Notes: generated from the letters alone by a model not told the origin. A stretch of DNA of 64,000 nucleotides from Rhizomicrobium sp. (GCA_035570795.1 DATMKZ010000044.1:282-64281), one strand, 5' to 3'. Counted from the stretch's first letter, positions 30 through 8,059 are shown. Numbers and translations are program-made.

Positions 30-58
30 TTGACGGGCCGGTGCACTGTAATTATTCA
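30..58 (+). promoter_or_regulatory. Candidate sigma70 promoter (TTGACG-N17-TATTCA)
   Basis: TTGACG at 30-35 and TATTCA at 53-58 in an AT-rich patch upstream of the structured leader. The missing -7 T is common in alphaproteobacteria. Confidence 0.35.
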
Positions 59-80
59 TTGATCAGTGAATTAGTGTTGA

Positions 81-215
81 GATGCTGCCTTGGACCAACG
101 TCCCGCATCGCAGCAAGACGTCACCCACCAGCCGGCACTCTACCCAGGGGTCCGTCCGGTGGCGAAATCCCCCGGCCTGCGCTCCTCCTCGGGTAGGGCC
201 GGGGGATGTTCTTTT
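81..215 (+). ncRNA. Candidate structured leader RNA / small RNA
   Basis: 5' hairpin (TGCTGC 83-88 with GCAGCA 110-115; GGAC 92-95 with GTCC 100-103), an alternative helix 132-150/185-202, and a terminal hairpin with a T-rich tail. No known family recognised. Confidence 0.45.
167..215 (+). terminator. Intrinsic terminator-like hairpin upstream of the sulfatase
   Basis: Perfect 11-bp stem ATCCCCCGGCC (167-177) / GGCCGGGGGAT (197-207) followed by GTTCTTTT. Confidence 0.6.
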
Positions 216-298
216 CCCCAAGAAATCGATCCCCCCCGATTCGGTTGAGCCACCCCTTGCCAGGGTGCAAGCTTGCTCAAATCCGGGACCGCGAAATC

Positions 299-1819
299 AT
301 GCCCCTGAACGTGCTTTTCATCACGGCGGACCAGTGGCGTGCGGAATGCCTTTCCGCGCTGGACCATCCCATGGTCAAAACCCCTCATCTCGATGCCTTG
401 GCACGCGAGGGTGTGCTGTTCGCCAGCCATTTCGCTAATGCCGTCCCCTGCGGGCCTTCGCGGACCTCGCTGCACACCGGCATGTATCTGCAGAACCATC
501 GCTCCGGCACCAACGGGACGCCGCTAGACGCGCGCCATACCAATTGGGCGAAGGAAGCGGCCGCCAGCGGTTACGATCCCGTGCTGTTCGGCTACACCGA
601 CACCAGCCTGGATCCGCGCGAACTCGAAGACGGCGATCCCTGGCTGCGCACATATGAAGGACCGCTGCCGGGCATTCGCCCGCTCGTGATGATGGGCGCA
701 ACGCCTTATCCCTGGACGGACTGGCTGAAAGCGAAGGGCCATACCGTTCCCGAGCCGATTGCGCGGGCTTATTCCTATCGGGCTGACGGGCCGGACTATG
801 AAGACGGCGCGGCCGTACCCAAGCCGCTCGCCTATCCGGCCGAAGCCGATGACACGAATTTCCTGGTCGATCGCTGCATCGATTATATTCGGGACGCCAA
901 AGGCCCGTTCATCGCGCACCTCTCCATCCTGCGGCCGCACCCGCCCTTCATAGCGCCCGAGCCCTACAATGCCCTGTACGACCCGCGCGACGTGCCCGGC
1001 TTTTCGCGGCTGGCGACGCCGGACGCGGAGGCGGCACAGCATCCCTGGCTGGCGCACCAGCTGTCGCGTCGCCAGTTCCGCGCCAGCGCCGACGATCGCA
1101 AAATGCGCCGTCTGAAAGCCGTCTATTACGGGCTGATGAGCGAAGTGGACGCCGCCCTGGGCCGTGTCTTTACATTTCTGAAAGAGAGCGGGCGTTGGGA
1201 CGATACGCTGATCGTCTTCACCTCCGACCATGGCGAGCAGATGGGCGACCACTGGCTGCTCGGCAAATGCGGCTATTTCGACGCCTCGTATCGCATACCG
1301 CTGATCGTGCGCGATCCGCGGCCGGCTGCCGATGGCGGGCGCGGCACTGTCGTCAATCGCTTCACCGAGAACGTCGACATCATGCCGACCATGCTGGAGG
1401 CGATCGGCGCTCGTATCCCGCTGCAGTGCGATGGGTTGTCGCTGCGCCCGTTCCTGGAAGGCACCGGCGCCCCGGCCAACTGGCGCAGCGAAGCACATTG
1501 GGAATTCGACTTCCGCGATCCGGCCGACGACAGCGCCGAACGCAAGCTGGGCCTGACGCTGCACCAATGCACGATGAACGTCGTCCGCGACGAGCGCTTC
1601 AAATATGTTCATTTCACCAAGCTGCCGCCGTTGCTGTTCGATCTGCAGAAGGATCCCGGCGAATTCACCAATTGCGCCGGCGACCCGCACTATTTGGGCA
1701 TCATGCTCGAATACGCCCAGAAGCTCCTCTCCTGGCGCATGAATCACGACGAGCAGGTTTTGACCCATATTTCGCTTACCGGGCGCGGGCCGGTTTCGCG
1801 GCCCGCCCTGCGCTATTGA
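299..1819 (+). CDS. Sulfatase-family enzyme, phosphonate monoester hydrolase/phosphodiesterase type
   Basis: NVLFITADQWR, the formylglycine motif CGPSR (CxPxR), RPHPP, SDHGEQMGDHWLLGK and EFDFRD. ATG 299 preferred because ATG 206 lies in the terminator stem. Confidence 0.85.
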   Translation: MPLNVLFITADQWRAECLSALDHPMVKTPHLDALAREGVLFASHFANAVPCGPSRTSLHTGMYLQNHRSGTNGTPLDARHTNWAKEAAASGYDPVLFGYTDTSLDPRELEDGDPWLRTYEGPLPGIRPLVMMGATPYPWTDWLKAKGHTVPEPIARAYSYRADGPDYEDGAAVPKPLAYPAEADDTNFLVDRCIDYIRDAKGPFIAHLSILRPHPPFIAPEPYNALYDPRDVPGFSRLATPDAEAAQHPWLAHQLSRRQFRASADDRKMRRLKAVYYGLMSEVDAALGRVFTFLKESGRWDDTLIVFTSDHGEQMGDHWLLGKCGYFDASYRIPLIVRDPRPAADGGRGTVVNRFTENVDIMPTMLEAIGARIPLQCDGLSLRPFLEGTGAPANWRSEAHWEFDFRDPADDSAERKLGLTLHQCTMNVVRDERFKYVHFTKLPPLLFDLQKDPGEFTNCAGDPHYLGIMLEYAQKLLSWRMNHDEQVLTHISLTGRGPVSRPALRY

Positions 1820-1862
1820 ACCGCCCCGCGGCCGTCCTATGTTTCCTCCAACAGGGGACCTC

Positions 1863-2741
1863 ATGCTTACCATCCAGAATCTCAGTCACGTCTATCCCAG
1901 GGGCGTGCGCGCCCTGAATTCCGTCAACCTGGAGATTCCGGCCGGCATGTTCGGCCTGCTCGGCCCGAACGGCGCGGGCAAGTCGACGCTGATGCGCTGC
2001 GTCGCGACGCTGCAGACGCCAACCAGCGGCACGATCCGCTTTGGCGACATCGACGTGATCAAGGAGCCCGAGAGGTTGCGCCAGGTCCTCGGATACCTGC
2101 CGCAGGATTTCGGCGTCTATCCGCGGGTCACCGCCTACGACATGCTCGATCATATGGCCGTGCTCAAGGGTGTCACGCGCAGCGGCGAGCGCCGCGAAAC
2201 GGTCGAAGCGTTGCTCAACCAGGTCAATCTGTGGGCCGTGCGCAAGAAATCCATCGCGGGGTTTTCGGGCGGCATGCGCCAGCGCTTCGGCATCGCCCAG
2301 GCGCTGATCGGCCGCCCCTCGCTCCTGATCGTCGACGAGCCGACGGCGGGCCTCGATCCGGAAGAGCGCAACCGTTTCCTCAATCTGCTTTCGGAAGTCG
2401 GCGAGCAGATCGTGGTGATCCTGTCCACGCACATCGTGGACGATGTCTCCGATCTGTGCCCGCGCATGGCGATTATCGCCGACGGCAGGATCGTCGGCGC
2501 GGGCGCGCCGGATGCGCTCACCCGAGCCCTCAAGGGGCGCATTTGGAAAAAAGCCGCGGGCAAAGGCGAGCTGGAATCCTATCGCCAGAAATACAACGTC
2601 ATTTCGACCCGTCTGGTCAGCGGCCACACCGTCGTCCACATCCTTTCGGACACCGACCCGGGGAATGGCTTCGCCGCGGTCGAAGCGGGCCTGGAAGACG
2701 TCTATTTCTCCACCCTGATCAGCGCGCGCCAGGCGGCCTAG
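1863..2741 (+). CDS. ABC transporter ATP-binding protein
   Basis: Walker A GPNGAGKST, signature FSGGMRQR, Walker B LIVDEP, H-loop STH. Confidence 0.95.
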   Translation: MLTIQNLSHVYPRGVRALNSVNLEIPAGMFGLLGPNGAGKSTLMRCVATLQTPTSGTIRFGDIDVIKEPERLRQVLGYLPQDFGVYPRVTAYDMLDHMAVLKGVTRSGERRETVEALLNQVNLWAVRKKSIAGFSGGMRQRFGIAQALIGRPSLLIVDEPTAGLDPEERNRFLNLLSEVGEQIVVILSTHIVDDVSDLCPRMAIIADGRIVGAGAPDALTRALKGRIWKKAAGKGELESYRQKYNVISTRLVSGHTVVHILSDTDPGNGFAAVEAGLEDVYFSTLISARQAA

Positions 2742-2744
2742 GAG

Positions 2745-5700
2745 ATGTTCGGGAAAATCGCCGCCTTCGAATTTCGCTACCAGATGCGCTCGCCCGTCTT
2801 CTGGGTGTCCGCCGGCATCTTTTTCCTGCTGACGTTCGCCGCAACAACGGTCAGCCAGGTTTCCGTCGGCTCGATCGGCGGCACGTTCAAGAATTCGCCC
2901 TACGCGATACTGATCGTGCTGGGCACGATGGACGTGTTCTTCATCTTTGCCTTGATAGCGTTCGTGGCGAACATCGTGGTGCGCGACGACGAGACCGGTT
3001 ACGGCCCTATCATACGTTCGACCCGAATCACCAAGTTCGACTACCTGTTCGGCCGTTTCACCGGTGCGTTCGGCGCGGGCATGCTGATGGCCGTCGCCAT
3101 GCCGCTGGGCATCCTCATCGGCTCCTTCATGCCCTGGGTCGATCCGGTGCGGATGGGCCCGTTCCATCCCGAGCACTATTTCTACGCCTATTTCGTCCTG
3201 ATGTTTCCCACCCTGTTCGTTCTCGGCGCGGCCTTCTTTGCGCTCGCGACCGCCACGCGGTCCATGATGGCCACCTATGTCGGGGCCGTCGGCTTTCTCA
3301 TCCTCTTCCTCGTCCTGACGGTGCTTTTTCAGAAGCCGCAATACGATCACATCGTCGGGCTGCTCGAACCCTTCGGTTTCGGTGCGGTCGAGGAAATCAC
3401 CAAGTATTGGACGACCTCGGATCGCAATACGATGCTGCCGCCGCTGGCCGACGTGCTGCTCTACAACCGCGCGATCTGGTTCAGCCTGACCTTCGTTCTG
3501 CTGGCCATTGCGTATTTCACCTTCCGCTTCGAGACCCGCGGTGCCCGCAGCGCCGCGCCGGAGAAGAAGGATGCCGCGATCGTGCGGGCGCGCAGCGGCC
3601 CGCTGCCGGCGCCGCATTTCGATGCCGCCAGCCTGCGCGTCATGTCCTGGACGTGGACGCGCTTCGAAATGGGGCAGGTTTTCAAGAGCCCGGCGTTCTT
3701 CATCCTGCTGGCGCTGGGCCTGCTCAACGCGTTCGGCAGCCTCGCCTTCGCCAATGAGCGTTCCGACTATATCGTGCTGCCGGTCACCAACCTTATGATC
3801 GACGCGCTCAACGGCGCCTTCACGTTCATTCCGCTGATCGTCGCGATCTACTATGCCGGCGAGCTCGTCTGGCGGGAACGCGACCGGCGCACGCACGAAG
3901 TGTTCGATGCCACGCCGGTTCCGGACTGGGCGTTCGTCGTGCCGAAGATCGCGGCCATCGCGCTGGTGCTGACAATCATGCTCGCGATTTCCGTGTTCGC
4001 CGCGGTGATCGTGCAGGTGTTCCGGGGCTATTTCAATTTCGAGTGGCTGCACTACCTCGATTGGTACGTGGTGCCCAACGCGATCGAAGTGATCGAGATC
4101 GCGGCCCTGGCGATCTTCGTCCAGGCGGTCTCGCCGCACAAATTCGTCGGCTGGGGCGTGATGGCGCTGGTCATCGTCGCGCTCATCGCCTTTGGCAACA
4201 TCGGCTGGGAACATCACCTGTATCTCTTCGGCCGCACGAGCCAGGTGCCGCTGTCCGACATGAACGCGCAAGGCACGTTCTGGATCGGCCGCGCGTGGTT
4301 CCAGGTCTATTGGCTGGCCTTCTCGCTGATGCTGTCGATTCTGGCTTACGGGCTCTGGCGCCGAGGGACCGAGACACGCCTCAGGCCGCGCCTGATGCGT
4401 CTGCCGCGGCGGATGCGGGGTTTTGCCGGCGTGCTGATGGCGTTCGCCGTCGTCGTCTGGGTGGGCGCGGGCGCCTATATCTACTACAACACCAATGTTC
4501 TCAACGAGTATCGCACCACGGTCGCCGACGAAGCCTTCGCCGCCGACTACGAGCGCGCGCTCTACAAATTCCACACCTTGCCGATGCCGCATGTCACGGA
4601 CGTCGTCCTGAACGTCGCGATCTATCCGCACGATCCGTGCATCGTCACTGTTGGCCGCTACGCGATCGTCAACAAGACCGCCAAGCCGCTGACCCAGGTG
4701 CATGTCCGCTGGCCGCGCGAACTGCATATGGAGCAGCTCGCCGTGCAGGGCGCGCATGTGCAGCAGCGTTTCGACCGCTTCAACTATGTGATCTATGTCT
4801 TCGATACGCCTCTGCAACCCGGTGCGAAGAGCGAGGTCGCGTTTCGCACCGTGTGGGAACAGAAAGGCTTCAAGAACAGCAACAACCTGACGCGCATCGT
4901 CGACAATGGCACCTTCGTCAACAATCTGGAGATCGCGCCGTCGCTTGGCATGGATCAGACCAGTTTGCTGCGCGACCTGGTCAAGCGGCGGCGTCAGCAC
5001 CTTGTGGGCGATCTGCGGCCGCCCAAACTGGAAGACGGCGCGGCGCGCATGATGGGTCCGTTCGTCGACTCCGACTGGGTGAATTCCGACATCACGGTTT
5101 CCACGGTCGCCGACCAGACGCCGATTGCACCGGGCTACCGCGTCTCGGAAACCGTGGCCGACGGCCGCCGTACCGTGCGGTTCAGGTCCGACGCACCGAT
5201 CCTCGATTTCTTCTCCGTCCAGTCGGCGGCCTACGCCCAGAAACACGCCAAATGGCATGATGTCGACCTGACCGTCTATTACGATCCGCATCACCCTTTC
5301 GAGATCGACCGCATGCTGTCGTCGATGAAGGCATCGCTCGACGTCTACAGCAAGGCGTTCGGCCCTTATCAGTTCCGCCAGGCCCGCATTCTGGAATTTC
5401 CCGGTTATGCAAATTTCGCGCAGTCCTTCGCCAATACGATCCCCTATTCGGAGAATCTCGGGTTCATTCAGGACGACAGCGCCATTCGCGCCGACACCGA
5501 CAAGATCGATCTCGTCACCTTCGTGACCGCGCACGAGCTCGGGCATCAATGGTGGGGTCATCAGCTGACCTCCGCCAACATGCAGGGCGGCACGATGCTG
5601 GTGGAGACGATGGCGCAGTATTCGGCGATGCTGGTGATGGAGCATCTCTATGGCCCCGAGCACGTCCGCAAATTCCTCAAGGCCGAACTCGACTCCTATC

Positions 5701-6329
5701 TGCGCAATCGCGGCAGCGAAGAAGTGGAGGAACTGCCGCTCGACCGGGTCGAGGACCAGGGCTACATCCACTACCGCAAGGGCGCGGTCATCATGTACCG
5801 GCTGAAGCAGACCATCGGCGAGGCGGCCATCGACCGCGCGCTTCGCCGGATGCTCGCGACATACGCTTTCAGAGGCCCGCCCTATCCATCGACACTCGAC
5901 TTCCTGAAGGTGCTGCGCCAGGAGGCGGGGCCGCAATATGACGCGCTGATCACCGACCTGTTCGACAAGATCACGCTCTATGATCTGAAAGCCCAAAGCG
6001 TGGTCTGGAGCAAGCGGCATGACGGGCGCTTCGACGTGGCGCTCACCGTCGAGGCGCATAAATACTATGCCGACGGCAAGGGCGCGCAGACCGAGGCCCG
6101 GATGGACGAGCCGGTCGATATCGGCCTGTTCCTCGCCCGGCCCGGAGACGCCGATTTCGGCAAGGACAAGATCCTGCGCCTGGCGCCGATGCATATCGGC
6201 TCCGGCACGCAGGTGCTCCACTTCGTGACGGCCGTGGCGCCGAAATTCGCCGGCATCGATCCCTACAATGAGTGGATCGACCGCAATTCGGACGACAATG
6301 TCGTTGCGGCAAGTTCCGGCAGCGGCTGA
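2745..6329 (+). CDS. ABC-2-type permease fused to an M1-family zinc aminopeptidase domain
   Basis: About 580 aa of multi-pass hydrophobic sequence (two permease repeats), then a soluble domain with HELGHQWWG (HExxH), a downstream E and YIHYRKG. Confidence 0.9.
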   Translation: MFGKIAAFEFRYQMRSPVFWVSAGIFFLLTFAATTVSQVSVGSIGGTFKNSPYAILIVLGTMDVFFIFALIAFVANIVVRDDETGYGPIIRSTRITKFDYLFGRFTGAFGAGMLMAVAMPLGILIGSFMPWVDPVRMGPFHPEHYFYAYFVLMFPTLFVLGAAFFALATATRSMMATYVGAVGFLILFLVLTVLFQKPQYDHIVGLLEPFGFGAVEEITKYWTTSDRNTMLPPLADVLLYNRAIWFSLTFVLLAIAYFTFRFETRGARSAAPEKKDAAIVRARSGPLPAPHFDAASLRVMSWTWTRFEMGQVFKSPAFFILLALGLLNAFGSLAFANERSDYIVLPVTNLMIDALNGAFTFIPLIVAIYYAGELVWRERDRRTHEVFDATPVPDWAFVVPKIAAIALVLTIMLAISVFAAVIVQVFRGYFNFEWLHYLDWYVVPNAIEVIEIAALAIFVQAVSPHKFVGWGVMALVIVALIAFGNIGWEHHLYLFGRTSQVPLSDMNAQGTFWIGRAWFQVYWLAFSLMLSILAYGLWRRGTETRLRPRLMRLPRRMRGFAGVLMAFAVVVWVGAGAYIYYNTNVLNEYRTTVADEAFAADYERALYKFHTLPMPHVTDVVLNVAIYPHDPCIVTVGRYAIVNKTAKPLTQVHVRWPRELHMEQLAVQGAHVQQRFDRFNYVIYVFDTPLQPGAKSEVAFRTVWEQKGFKNSNNLTRIVDNGTFVNNLEIAPSLGMDQTSLLRDLVKRRRQHLVGDLRPPKLEDGAARMMGPFVDSDWVNSDITVSTVADQTPIAPGYRVSETVADGRRTVRFRSDAPILDFFSVQSAAYAQKHAKWHDVDLTVYYDPHHPFEIDRMLSSMKASLDVYSKAFGPYQFRQARILEFPGYANFAQSFANTIPYSENLGFIQDDSAIRADTDKIDLVTFVTAHELGHQWWGHQLTSANMQGGTMLVETMAQYSAMLVMEHLYGPEHVRKFLKAELDSYLRNRGSEEVEELPLDRVEDQGYIHYRKGAVIMYRLKQTIGEAAIDRALRRMLATYAFRGPPYPSTLDFLKVLRQEAGPQYDALITDLFDKITLYDLKAQSVVWSKRHDGRFDVALTVEAHKYYADGKGAQTEARMDEPVDIGLFLARPGDADFGKDKILRLAPMHIGSGTQVLHFVTAVAPKFAGIDPYNEWIDRNSDDNVVAASSGSG

Positions 6330-6386: not shown

Positions 6387-7061
6387 TTGGATTCGCTCGA
6401 TCACATCGACGGCGTATTGCCGGTCAACCAGGCGCGCAGCCGCGACGCGCGCGACCGGCTGCTGGCCGCGGGCGAACGCGTCTTCGCCAGGGTCGGCTAC
6501 GACGCTGCGCATGTGAACGACATCGCGCTGGCCGCCGGCTGCTCGGTCGGCAGCTTCTACCGACGCTTCCGCGACAAGGAGGCCTTCTTCAAGGCGCTGC
6601 ACCACAGATTCACCGAGCGCAACCTCGACAACGCGGCGCGCTTCTTCGCGCTGCCGCAATGGCAAGACCAGCCGACTTCAGTGATGGTGCGGACGCTGAT
6701 CGAGAACACCGCGCACATCATGCGCCGCAATCACGGCGTCTTCCGCGCCCTGTTCCAGCGCTCGCTGGCGGGCGCGGGCGCGGATTATTGGCCGAGCATG
6801 CGGGCCGGCACGGCGCGGCAGGGCCATCTGCTTGCCGAATTTCTCGTCGCGCGCGGCGAAGGTACCCACGAGAACCTGGTGGATGCCTGCACGTTCGCAT
6901 TGCGCTCGGTCGACGGGGCGTTGGTCAACCGCATGCTCAACGACGGCCCCTACCTGGACGAGGATTTCGTCGTCGACTCGCTTTCGCGCATGGCGCTGTC
7001 GTTCCTGGGCGTCGAGGATCACGCCGCCTCGCTCGCCAAGAAGCCGGCCAGGCGCAGGTGA
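6387..7061 (+). CDS. TetR/AcrR family transcriptional regulator
   Basis: N-terminal HTH RDRLLAAGERVFARVGYDAAHVNDIALAAGCSVGSFYRRFRDKE. TTG start. Confidence 0.9.
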   Translation: MDSLDHIDGVLPVNQARSRDARDRLLAAGERVFARVGYDAAHVNDIALAAGCSVGSFYRRFRDKEAFFKALHHRFTERNLDNAARFFALPQWQDQPTSVMVRTLIENTAHIMRRNHGVFRALFQRSLAGAGADYWPSMRAGTARQGHLLAEFLVARGEGTHENLVDACTFALRSVDGALVNRMLNDGPYLDEDFVVDSLSRMALSFLGVEDHAASLAKKPARRR

Positions 7062-8059
7062 CGCGGGCGGACGGGCTTGCGGCTGCGTTGATCGCCGCAG
7101 TCGCGCTGGTCTGCCTCGGCGGCGCGTTTTTCGGAACGCGGGGCGACGTCGTGCCGATCAATTTGGCGGCACGCTGTCTCGATCCGGCGGCACCGGCGCC
7201 GCATCAAGGCATGGTGTGGATTCCGGCCGGCGGATACGAAGCCGGCGACACGATCTATCCCGAGGAGGGACCGGTGACGCGGGCGCGGGTCGGCGGCTTC
7301 TGGATGGATCGGCACGAGGTCAGCAACGGTGAATTTGCGACCTTCGTCGCCGCAACCGGCTACATCACGCAGGCCGAACGGGCTCTCGATCCGGCGACCC
7401 ATCCGGGTTTGCCGCCGGACATGCTGCGGCCCGGCGCCGTCGTGTTCTTCATGCCCAAGCAGGTCCAAGGCATGGCGGACATCTCGCAGTGGTGGCGCTT
7501 CGTGCCGGGCGCCAACTGGCGACATCCGGCCGGTCCGCAGAGTTCGATCGTCGGGCGCGCGAACTATCCCGTCGTCGAGGTGACGCATGACGATGCGCTC
7601 GCCTATGCGCGCTGGAGAGGACGCGACCTGCCGAGCGAGGCCGAATGGGAGTGGGCGGCGCGCGCCGGCGATGCCAAAGCCGGCGACGACCATGACCAGC
7701 CCGGAAACGCCAACACCTGGCAGGGCATATTTCCCGTGCTTAACAGCGGCGCAGACGGCTTCGTCGGGCTGGCGCCGGCGGGCTGCTACGCGGCCAACGC
7801 TTATGGGCTCTACGACATGATCGGCAATGTCTGGGAGATGACCGACGATGTCTATCGTCCGCGCCGGGGCGAGGCGCCGGCGCCGGACGCGATGCCGGCG
7901 ATGGGCGAGGAGCGGCGCTATGTGATCAAGGGCGGCTCGTTCCTCTGCGCGCCCAATTACTGCATGCGCTACCGGTCAGGCTCGCGCGAGGGGCAGGAGG
8001 CCGACCTCGCGGCGAGCCATCTGGGCTTTCGCACGATCCTGCGCCGCGGCACGCCTTAG
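7058..8059 (+). CDS. Formylglycine-generating enzyme (FGE/SUMF1 family)
   Basis: GTG start overlaps the TetR stop (GTGA). Motifs MDRHEVSN, PVVEVTHDDA, LPSEAEWEWAAR, GLYDMIGNVWE and GGSFLCAPNYCMRYR with both catalytic Cys. Confidence 0.9.
   Translation: MTRADGLAAALIAAVALVCLGGAFFGTRGDVVPINLAARCLDPAAPAPHQGMVWIPAGGYEAGDTIYPEEGPVTRARVGGFWMDRHEVSNGEFATFVAATGYITQAERALDPATHPGLPPDMLRPGAVVFFMPKQVQGMADISQWWRFVPGANWRHPAGPQSSIVGRANYPVVEVTHDDALAYARWRGRDLPSEAEWEWAARAGDAKAGDDHDQPGNANTWQGIFPVLNSGADGFVGLAPAGCYAANAYGLYDMIGNVWEMTDDVYRPRRGEAPAPDAMPAMGEERRYVIKGGSFLCAPNYCMRYRSGSREGQEADLAASHLGFRTILRRGTP

Follow-up and report, generated by a model that had tools for sequence, protein, structure and literature searches.

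The window analyzed here is a stretch of 64,000 nucleotides from Rhizomicrobium sp. that starts 259 nt inside the metagenome contig L001 (L-numbers label the loci and contigs that were compared). Upstream is the 3′ end of a plus-strand gene whose product terminates in ...GVSVGASW and which in relatives encodes a TonB-dependent receptor with a Plug domain. Here the gene is followed by a terminator of its own that contains seven consecutive T (L001 182-213) and lies before the next promoter. That promoter, P1, consists of a −35 hexamer TTGACG (30-35, plus strand) and, 17 nt 3′ of it, a −10 hexamer TATTCA (53-58, plus strand), and matches the promoter-like element noted in an earlier reading of this DNA from the sequence alone (the sequence-only reading). 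Two operator-like palindromes accompany P1: O1 (CCTCATCACGCAATGAAT, 8-25, consensus ATTCAT-N6-ATGAAT), located just 5′ of the −35 hexamer, and O2 (ATTCATTGATCAGTGAAT, 54-71), which spans the −10 hexamer and the predicted start, placed at about 64-66 for a P1 transcript. Three plus-strand hairpins follow: SL1 (75-115), a 5′ hairpin of variable length and sequence; SL2 (125-162), a conserved hairpin with the outer stem CCACC/GGUGG and the apex ACUCU-ACCCA-GGGGU; and SL3 (167-207), an intrinsic-terminator hairpin of −29.9 kcal/mol with 98% of cells paired and both arms near-invariant. The 11-bp terminator stem described previously is a perfect inverted repeat (ATCCCCCGGCC/GGCCGGGGGAT, 167-177/197-207), and the T-rich tail reported after it (GTTCTTTT, 6 T in 8) corresponds to a plus-strand U-rich tail at 208-215 (GUUCUUUU, 6 U in 8; 3-7 of 8 in relatives, median 5). 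The top of SL3 carries the anti-Shine-Dalgarno-like motif CUCCUCCUC (182-190, plus strand), unchanged in 29 of 30 distinct relatives; the loop motif given as CTCCTCCTC is indeed present at 182-190, in the terminator loop. The RNA looks like a plus-strand transcript of ~150 nt covering approximately 64-215; its ends, like the efficiency of termination, we infer from the sequence. Outside the RNA lies a predicted sulfatase promoter, P2 (TTGAGC-N17-CAAGCT, 245-273, plus strand), and the sulfatase ATG is found at 299, 84 nt past the tail, in agreement with an earlier estimate of about 85 nt.

The downstream gene (299-1819, plus strand) contains a Pfam Sulfatase domain and is of the sulfatase/phosphonate-monoester-hydrolase type. 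Its closest solved relatives, 4uph (1.5e-152), 2vqr and 2w8s, belong to the phosphonate monoester hydrolase/arylsulfatase group, and its N-terminus (MPLNVLFITADQW...) shows no evident signal peptide. The sulfatase operon also includes a gene for a formylglycine-generating enzyme (about 7058-8059); on the opposite strand there is a TauD-family gene. The expression "sulfatase-ABC genes", used previously for this operon, holds for the window, where an ABC ATPase gene and a 1194-aa ABC-2 permease fused to an M1 peptidase domain occupy 1839-6329, between the sulfatase and a TetR gene. It does not hold for most relatives, in which these genes are absent from that position and TetR directly follows the sulfatase, within about 100 nt (L005, L002, L013, L082, L104 and others). 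The genes at 1839-6329 look like an insertion into the operon.

The distribution of the RNA was followed in 80 loci around sulfatase orthologues taken from species-representative genomes. Eighteen assessable loci reach 80% protein identity or more, all of them Rhizomicrobium-type metagenome-assembled genomes (MAGs); 12 have the element in the same position, and it is missing from the other 6 (L009, L011, L012, L015, L016, L019). A covariance model built from 30 distinct sequences gives all known copies 85-108 bits and everything else in the window and 0.7 Mb of loci no more than 23 bits. A search with it returned no copy in any Parvibaculum or Binatia locus and no extra copies in the 64-kb window or the 0.7 Mb of loci, so that there is one per locus; the other matches to the loop motif in the window are only chance matches with 2 mismatches. 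A metagenome scan with a pattern made of the loop plus the 3′ arm yielded 27 matches, 24 of which are the element; the remaining three (L092, L093, L098) are chance matches without SL2. The sulfatase gene lies directly downstream and co-oriented in all 12 genome loci, and 23 of the 24 metagenome copies are found directly before a sulfatase orthologue, co-oriented in 23/23 assessable cases, the last copy being cut by a contig end. This linkage persists where the upstream gene differs or is deleted (L004, L005, L014). Such strict, co-oriented linkage is what a cis element would show. It favors a leader with conditional termination, in which P1 transcripts normally stop at 207-215 and read-through into the sulfatase operon occurs when a protein, an RNA or a ligand either opens SL2 or engages the loop of the terminator, and it counts against a separate small RNA (sRNA) gene.

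In three of the loci that lack the RNA, L009 (about 2950-2975), L011 and L012, the sequence ATTGCGGYGCAGCAAGAC occurs just upstream of the sulfatase −35 hexamer and aligns with the 3′ side of SL1 (window 105-119, CGCATCGCAGCAAGACG). It could be a mini-hairpin (UUGC-N6-GCAA) or a protein site. The alignment suggests an older upstream region that either gained the SL2-SL3 part by insertion or lost it by deletion.

None of the Rfam 15 covariance models gave a match at E ≤ 10 overlapping 30-215. Five relatives produced nothing at E ≤ 1; the sole CsrC match, on the minus strand of L007 and hence antisense, reached 20 bits, the gathering score being 61. Matches to SNORD126, Vax2os1, GlsR26 and CsrC obtained at permissive E-values were dismissed as sub-threshold chance. 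The sequence-only reading had recognized no known riboswitch class and had proposed a search for known trans-acting sRNAs; the former statement is borne out, as no Rfam family matches this structured, conserved RNA, and the latter search found no such sRNA. Comparison among relatives points to a real, conserved RNA of ~150 nt that was previously uncatalogued.

Among known systems, the RNA resembles the alphaproteobacterial cuckoo/αr14/CcsR (RSs0680) sRNAs, which consist of adjacent hairpins with variable stems and a conserved C/U-rich, anti-Shine-Dalgarno-like loop (PMC4615179). The loop motif of these cuckoo-type sRNAs is thought to pair with ribosome-binding sites, and the family is defined by CCUCCUCCC in every loop of 2-4 hairpins (PMC4615179). 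The RNA described here shares the adjacent hairpins, the variable stems and the C/U-rich loop, but only SL3 carries a related, different motif (CUCCUCCUC); the loop of SL2 is NCCCA and SL1 has no motif. Furthermore, cuckoo members occur in several copies in varied neighborhoods, often after a DUF1127 gene, whereas here one copy per locus always precedes the sulfatase, and no DUF1127 gene is found among the called genes nearby. Membership in the cuckoo family was rejected, given the single related motif, the lack of an Rfam match and the fixed context.

The plus strand of 60-225 folds into three hairpins (−70.1 kcal/mol, z = −2.8; 1 of 200 shuffles as stable), and the minus strand of the same region gives z = −1.0. 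Structure statistics were computed on a model-based alignment (A3). The whole structure has 92.2% of cells paired vs. 87.5% in shuffles, above all 500 column shuffles and all slid controls. SL2 shows compensatory changes in 10 of its 14 pairs, a covariation reached by none of 500 shuffles, and is formed independently by each sequence though the stem sequences differ widely. The G-U pairs at alignment columns 29/35 and 73/82 are fixed in 29-30 of the 30 sequences and therefore place the RNA on the plus strand. SL1 is a hairpin in 27 of 29 relatives, with differing lengths and sequences, and is absent from L089 and L104. A small ORF (GTG at 159, a 30-codon frame) was ruled out because 1-nt indels among relatives leave no reading frame conserved.

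Conservation is limited to the tops of SL2 and SL3, where the unpaired nucleotides that stay constant are NCCCA in the loop of SL2 and GCUCCUCCUCGGGC at the top of SL3. The loop sequence CUCCUC is invariant in 29 of 30 sequences while the SL2 stem diverged freely; the sole copy with a decayed loop motif is that of L004 (GCTCGTCGCC). A conserved, accessible seed and no conserved ORF are what a trans-acting sRNA would present. Two hairpin tops conserved in sequence on stems that vary could also be read as protein sites, the tops GCUCU-NCCCA-GGRGC and GCUCCUCCUCGGGC serving as binding sites for an RNA-binding protein rather than as pairing seeds, in a protein-binding or decoy RNA. This is very improbable: no known motif is recognized (neither GGA-in-loop repeats nor paired ANTAR hexaloops), and no gene for an RNA-binding protein is conserved beside the RNA in the loci examined. 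The CsrC-like match on the minus strand of L007 was considered as support for a protein-binding RNA and set aside as a chance, sub-threshold match.

Like an intrinsic terminator, SL3 is a G+C-rich hairpin directly before a U-rich stretch, and the terminator hairpins of the relatives are comparably strong (median −29 kcal/mol), the 8 nt after them containing 3-7 U. In several relatives the U tract is poor (3-4 of 8), and termination may therefore be leaky. The locus might serve two uses with no switch at all: most P1 transcripts would end as sRNA at a constitutively leaky terminator, and a fixed fraction would read into the sulfatase operon, adding to the basal activity of P2 and extending the repressor's control to that operon. 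The U tracts of 3-7 of 8 are in line with such a leak, as is the position of the terminator 17-100 nt before P2 in the same orientation; the very stable hairpins speak against it, and nothing in the sequence requires a leak.

The sequence-only reading had placed a mutually exclusive terminator/antiterminator switch in this leader, with 132-150 pairing to 185-202 and sequestering the 3′ arm of the terminator. The complementarity does exist in the window, but across relatives the mutually exclusive pairing is no better than conservation plus chance would give: the helix is 81.9% paired across 30 relatives, vs. a shuffle mean of 82.0%. Its central pair, A142-U194, is broken in 26 of 30 sequences, the neighboring pairs in 10 of 30 and the CCGG/CCGG end in 5-16 of 30. 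A GAAA-capped hairpin had also been described at 156-175; the pairing of 156-162 with 169-175 can form, though only in an alternative fold that in the window is 16.4 kcal/mol worse than the hairpin-plus-terminator fold and that appears on truncation of the RNA or when the terminator's 5′ arm is blocked. The idea of a terminator/antiterminator switch in this leader finds no support on two counts: the helix does not covary and is broken at its center in most relatives, and a separate promoter-like motif lies downstream. Because four palindromic CCGG motifs are present in the window sequence, several alternative pairings can be drawn in it.

Other ways in which the terminator could be opened were considered as well. 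The classical 2:3 antiterminator (SL2 3′ strand with terminator 5′ arm) was tried and rejected, with 67.6% of cells paired, not above shuffles, although it forms well in L007, L014 and L020. Blocking the 5′ arm of the terminator leaves a best fold that is 10.3-19.6 kcal/mol worse across relatives; most of them then keep SL2 intact and the 3′ arm self-folds. Complementarity between CCCAGGRG at the SL2 apex and CUCCU-C-GGG in the terminator loop is kept in 29-30 of 30 sequences, and since both blocks are invariant it offers no covariation test. No conserved junction or internal loop is evident as a candidate ligand pocket: SL2 has internal loops that vary among relatives, and SL1 differs widely or is missing altogether.

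For conditional termination at the sulfatase leader, these results cut both ways. The apex/loop complementarity favors it, as do the alternative folds seen in the window and some relatives (SL2 apex with loop, SL2 3′ strand with terminator 5′ arm) and terminator arms that are invariant beyond what structure alone would need. Against it stand the shuffle-level 132-150/185-202 helix with its broken central pair, the shuffle-level 2:3 pairing, the cost of 10-20 kcal/mol for blocking the terminator with SL2 still folded in most relatives, the apparent lack of a ligand-pocket core, and the changed loop of L004, which is accompanied by no compensating change in SL2. Attenuators and transcriptional riboswitches do resemble the locus in their order of promoter, structured RNA, intrinsic terminator and co-oriented gene. 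They differ from it in that no conserved or covarying antiterminator, no evident core resembling a ligand pocket and no leader peptide is present here, and in that a promoter-like motif lies between terminator and gene. Assignment to an attenuator or riboswitch class is not demonstrable, as neither a conserved antiterminator nor a promoter-free gap before the gene was found.

The sequence-only reading had named an independent sulfatase promoter between 215 and 298, with no read-through, among the findings that would speak against its model, and a promoter-like motif does lie in that gap. P2, predicted to be a separate promoter for the sulfatase gene, consists of TTGAGC (245-250), a 17-nt spacer and CAAGCT (268-273), between the terminator and the ATG. 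It is read as a promoter because two conserved hexamers are separated by a non-conserved spacer of fixed length. The strict pattern occurs in 22 of 30 RNA-bearing upstream regions and in all 6 relatives of the clade without the RNA, and the distance from the end of its −10 hexamer to the ATG is 23-35 nt in 26 of 28 matching loci (12-13 nt in L017 and L090). The motif is absent from the more distant orthologue loci, those of Parvibaculum and Binatia. The −10 region of P2, GCAAGMT, resembles the Caulobacter-type element GCTANAWC. Within the window, GCAAGCTTGC (267-280) is a perfect 10-bp palindrome overlapping the predicted −10 of P2, and TTGAGC...GCTCAA (245-250/275-280) forms an inverted repeat around it; an operator at 267-280 is doubtful because only the GCAAGC half is kept in relatives.

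In L095, the intact RNA gene and P2 are held 1.4 kb apart by an insert that contains an antisense ORF, and P2 stays beside the sulfatase. The insert (L095 4811-6150), visibly more A+T-rich than its flanks when judged by eye, is probably a recent insertion, and its ORF of 140 aa on the opposite strand has no Pfam match. Both the conserved P2, present also where the RNA is missing, and the L095 arrangement speak against conditional termination; in L095, read-through from a leaky terminator would likewise be useless. Conversely, P2 is associated with no palindrome of the O1/O2 type. P1 read-through would then be the only visible coupling of the sulfatase to the repressor, which favors conditional termination and counts against the sRNA-gene reading. 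With palindromes at P1 and at the receptor promoter and none at P2, the same observation is also favorable to a leaky terminator. Taken with the evidence above, conditional termination of the sulfatase leader appears rather unlikely, and a terminator with a constitutive leak is unlikely as well.

P1 itself is well kept. Relatives have TTGAC, a spacer of 16-18 nt and TATTCA (or TATTTT/TAATTT), and within the TATTCA class seven loci have TTGACN-N17 and seven more TTTGAN-N18, the same spacing one base upstream; the −35 element is absent only in the L010/L083/L085 group. A consensus promoter scan of the window flags neither P1 nor P2, P1 being missed because the last base of its −10 hexamer is A, so the status of both promoters rests on conserved hexamers and spacing and not on that scan. 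O2 has 0-1 mismatch to ATTCAT-N6-ATGAAT in most loci, and a second copy lies 46-49 bp upstream of it in most RNA-bearing loci; the 18-bp palindrome occurs nowhere else in the 64-kb window. With its own promoter and terminator the RNA is, at the sequence level, separate from the neighboring genes, as a trans-acting sRNA would be.

The same arrangement recurs before the receptor gene. In relatives, TTGACA stands between two palindromes in front of the TonB receptor gene, which starts with GTG after a GGGGAGG ribosome-binding site; ACTCAT replaces ATTCAT in the receptor-gene variant of the palindrome (L095 1328-1345, L100 2211-2228, L099 457-474, L014 1891-1908, L105 2420-2437, L084 3552-3569, L005 2492-2509). 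At the level of sequence, this implies one repressor for the RNA gene and the receptor gene. A full-text literature search for the palindrome as a published operator gave only unrelated primer matches, and to our knowledge it matches no described operator. A TetR-family gene (TetR_N and TetR_C_30) is divergent from the receptor promoter (L014 890-1675, minus strand) and has orthologues in L084, L005, L100, L091, L004, L095, L105, L097, L009, L011 and L012. Its product is a candidate regulator of the palindromes and goes no further than candidate because the gene also lies next to the sulfatase in the RNA-less L009, L011 and L012, where no palindrome was seen. It differs from the second TetR, encoded in the sulfatase operon (window 6387-7061), the two being ~28% identical over 58 residues.

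Several loci depart from this layout. In L014 (1884-2624) the receptor gene is internally deleted and encodes 246 aa, with the N-terminus joined to the C-terminus, and in L005 (about 2492-2760) only the promoter and the first codons are left of it; both loci keep an intact RNA and an intact sulfatase gene. L004 combines the loss of the TonB receptor gene and degraded palindromes with its decayed loop, a single anecdote; the changed loop GCTCGTCGCCGGGC (L004 2831-2934) extends the stem. In L010 (2560-2705), L083 and L085, the gene before the RNA encodes a different TonB receptor (about 25% identical). This group retains only the right half of the palindrome, has no −35 hexamer and has an upstream hairpin with no U tract, and yet the RNA is well kept. 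In these loci the receptor transcript may be the source of the RNA, which would then be a 3′-UTR-type sRNA. sRNAs derived from 3′ UTRs are known, for example CpxQ, and the L010/L083/L085 group resembles them in that the RNA comes after the receptor gene with no recognizable promoter of its own. The window and most relatives differ in this respect, having both a good receptor terminator and the RNA's own promoter.

The reading favored here, held with restrained confidence as modestly probable, is that of an independent, repressor-controlled small RNA with an anti-Shine-Dalgarno loop. The sequence-only reading had kept an sRNA with such a loop as its fallback, and this fits the evidence best, given the RNA's own promoter, its terminator and its invariant loop. 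A separate sRNA gene is supported by P2 being kept in the six relatives that lack the RNA, by the L095 insert, by the spacing and palindromes of P1, by the receptor terminator before P1 and the strong terminator of the RNA, by the invariant loop, by the lack of a conserved ORF and by the two-palindrome promoter common to the receptor gene. Beyond the points already raised, the poor U tracts, the apex/loop complementarity, the ordinary character of the target pairing and the lack of P1 in L010/L083/L085 count against it.

As an independent sRNA gene, the locus could work as follows. A σ70-type P1, bracketed by two 18-bp palindromes, would drive the RNA. A dimeric repressor, perhaps the divergent TetR-family protein, would bind the palindromes and repress both the RNA and the receptor gene as long as no inducer is present. 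The induced RNA would end at its own terminator and then act in trans, its C/U-rich loop CUCCUCCUC pairing with purine-rich ribosome-binding sites and lowering translation. The nearest candidate target would be the GGGGAGG ribosome-binding site on the mRNA of the co-regulated TonB receptor. Between the receptor ribosome-binding site and the loop, 6-9 nt are complementary in 7 of 7 loci, which amounts to generic Shine-Dalgarno complementarity that every strong ribosome-binding site would show, and duplexfold target predictions against the start regions of neighboring genes were uninformative.

The proposed regulation has parallels in known systems. In circuits of the Fur-RyhB/PrrF type, a repressor-controlled sRNA is co-regulated with uptake genes. 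The likeness lies in one operator design placed before an outer-membrane importer gene and an sRNA gene; unlike in those circuits, the palindrome here is not a Fur box, and the product of the divergent TetR-family gene is the candidate regulator. The Caulobacter crescentus sRNA ChvR is controlled by ChvI and acts on the mRNA of the TonB-dependent receptor ChvT (PMC6237742). The logic proposed here is the same, that of an alphaproteobacterial sRNA with a dedicated transcriptional regulator and a TonB receptor mRNA as target. However, no relationship in sequence or structure to ChvR was detected, control would be exerted by a palindrome-binding repressor rather than by ChvI, and the target proposed here follows from 6-9 nt of generic Shine-Dalgarno complementarity.

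The RNA could also be both things at once, a repressor-controlled sRNA and a terminator opened by a factor-dependent contact between the SL2 apex and the terminator loop, for which the prospects seem slim. If this dual reading were true, one promoter, built like that of the TonB receptor, would time a trans-acting regulator together with the sulfatase operon, and the leader would represent a new kind of expression platform, with loop-to-helix competition instead of a classical antiterminator.

The sRNA reading introduces no new principle. If it is right, the RNA would represent an uncatalogued sRNA family from the soil genus Rhizomicrobium, represented in the search by metagenome-assembled genomes only, and one operator design would control an outer-membrane importer and a small RNA. 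The comparison also carries a caution, in that a plausible terminator/antiterminator pair drawn from a single sequence, here helped by four CCGG palindromes, can vanish on comparison with relatives. The RNA adjoins genes for a sulfatase/phosphonate-ester hydrolase and its maturation enzyme, and we know of no sRNA for the scavenging of organic sulfur or phosphorus esters in Alphaproteobacteria. If true, the small RNA would provide an entry point to the post-transcriptional control of this scavenging.
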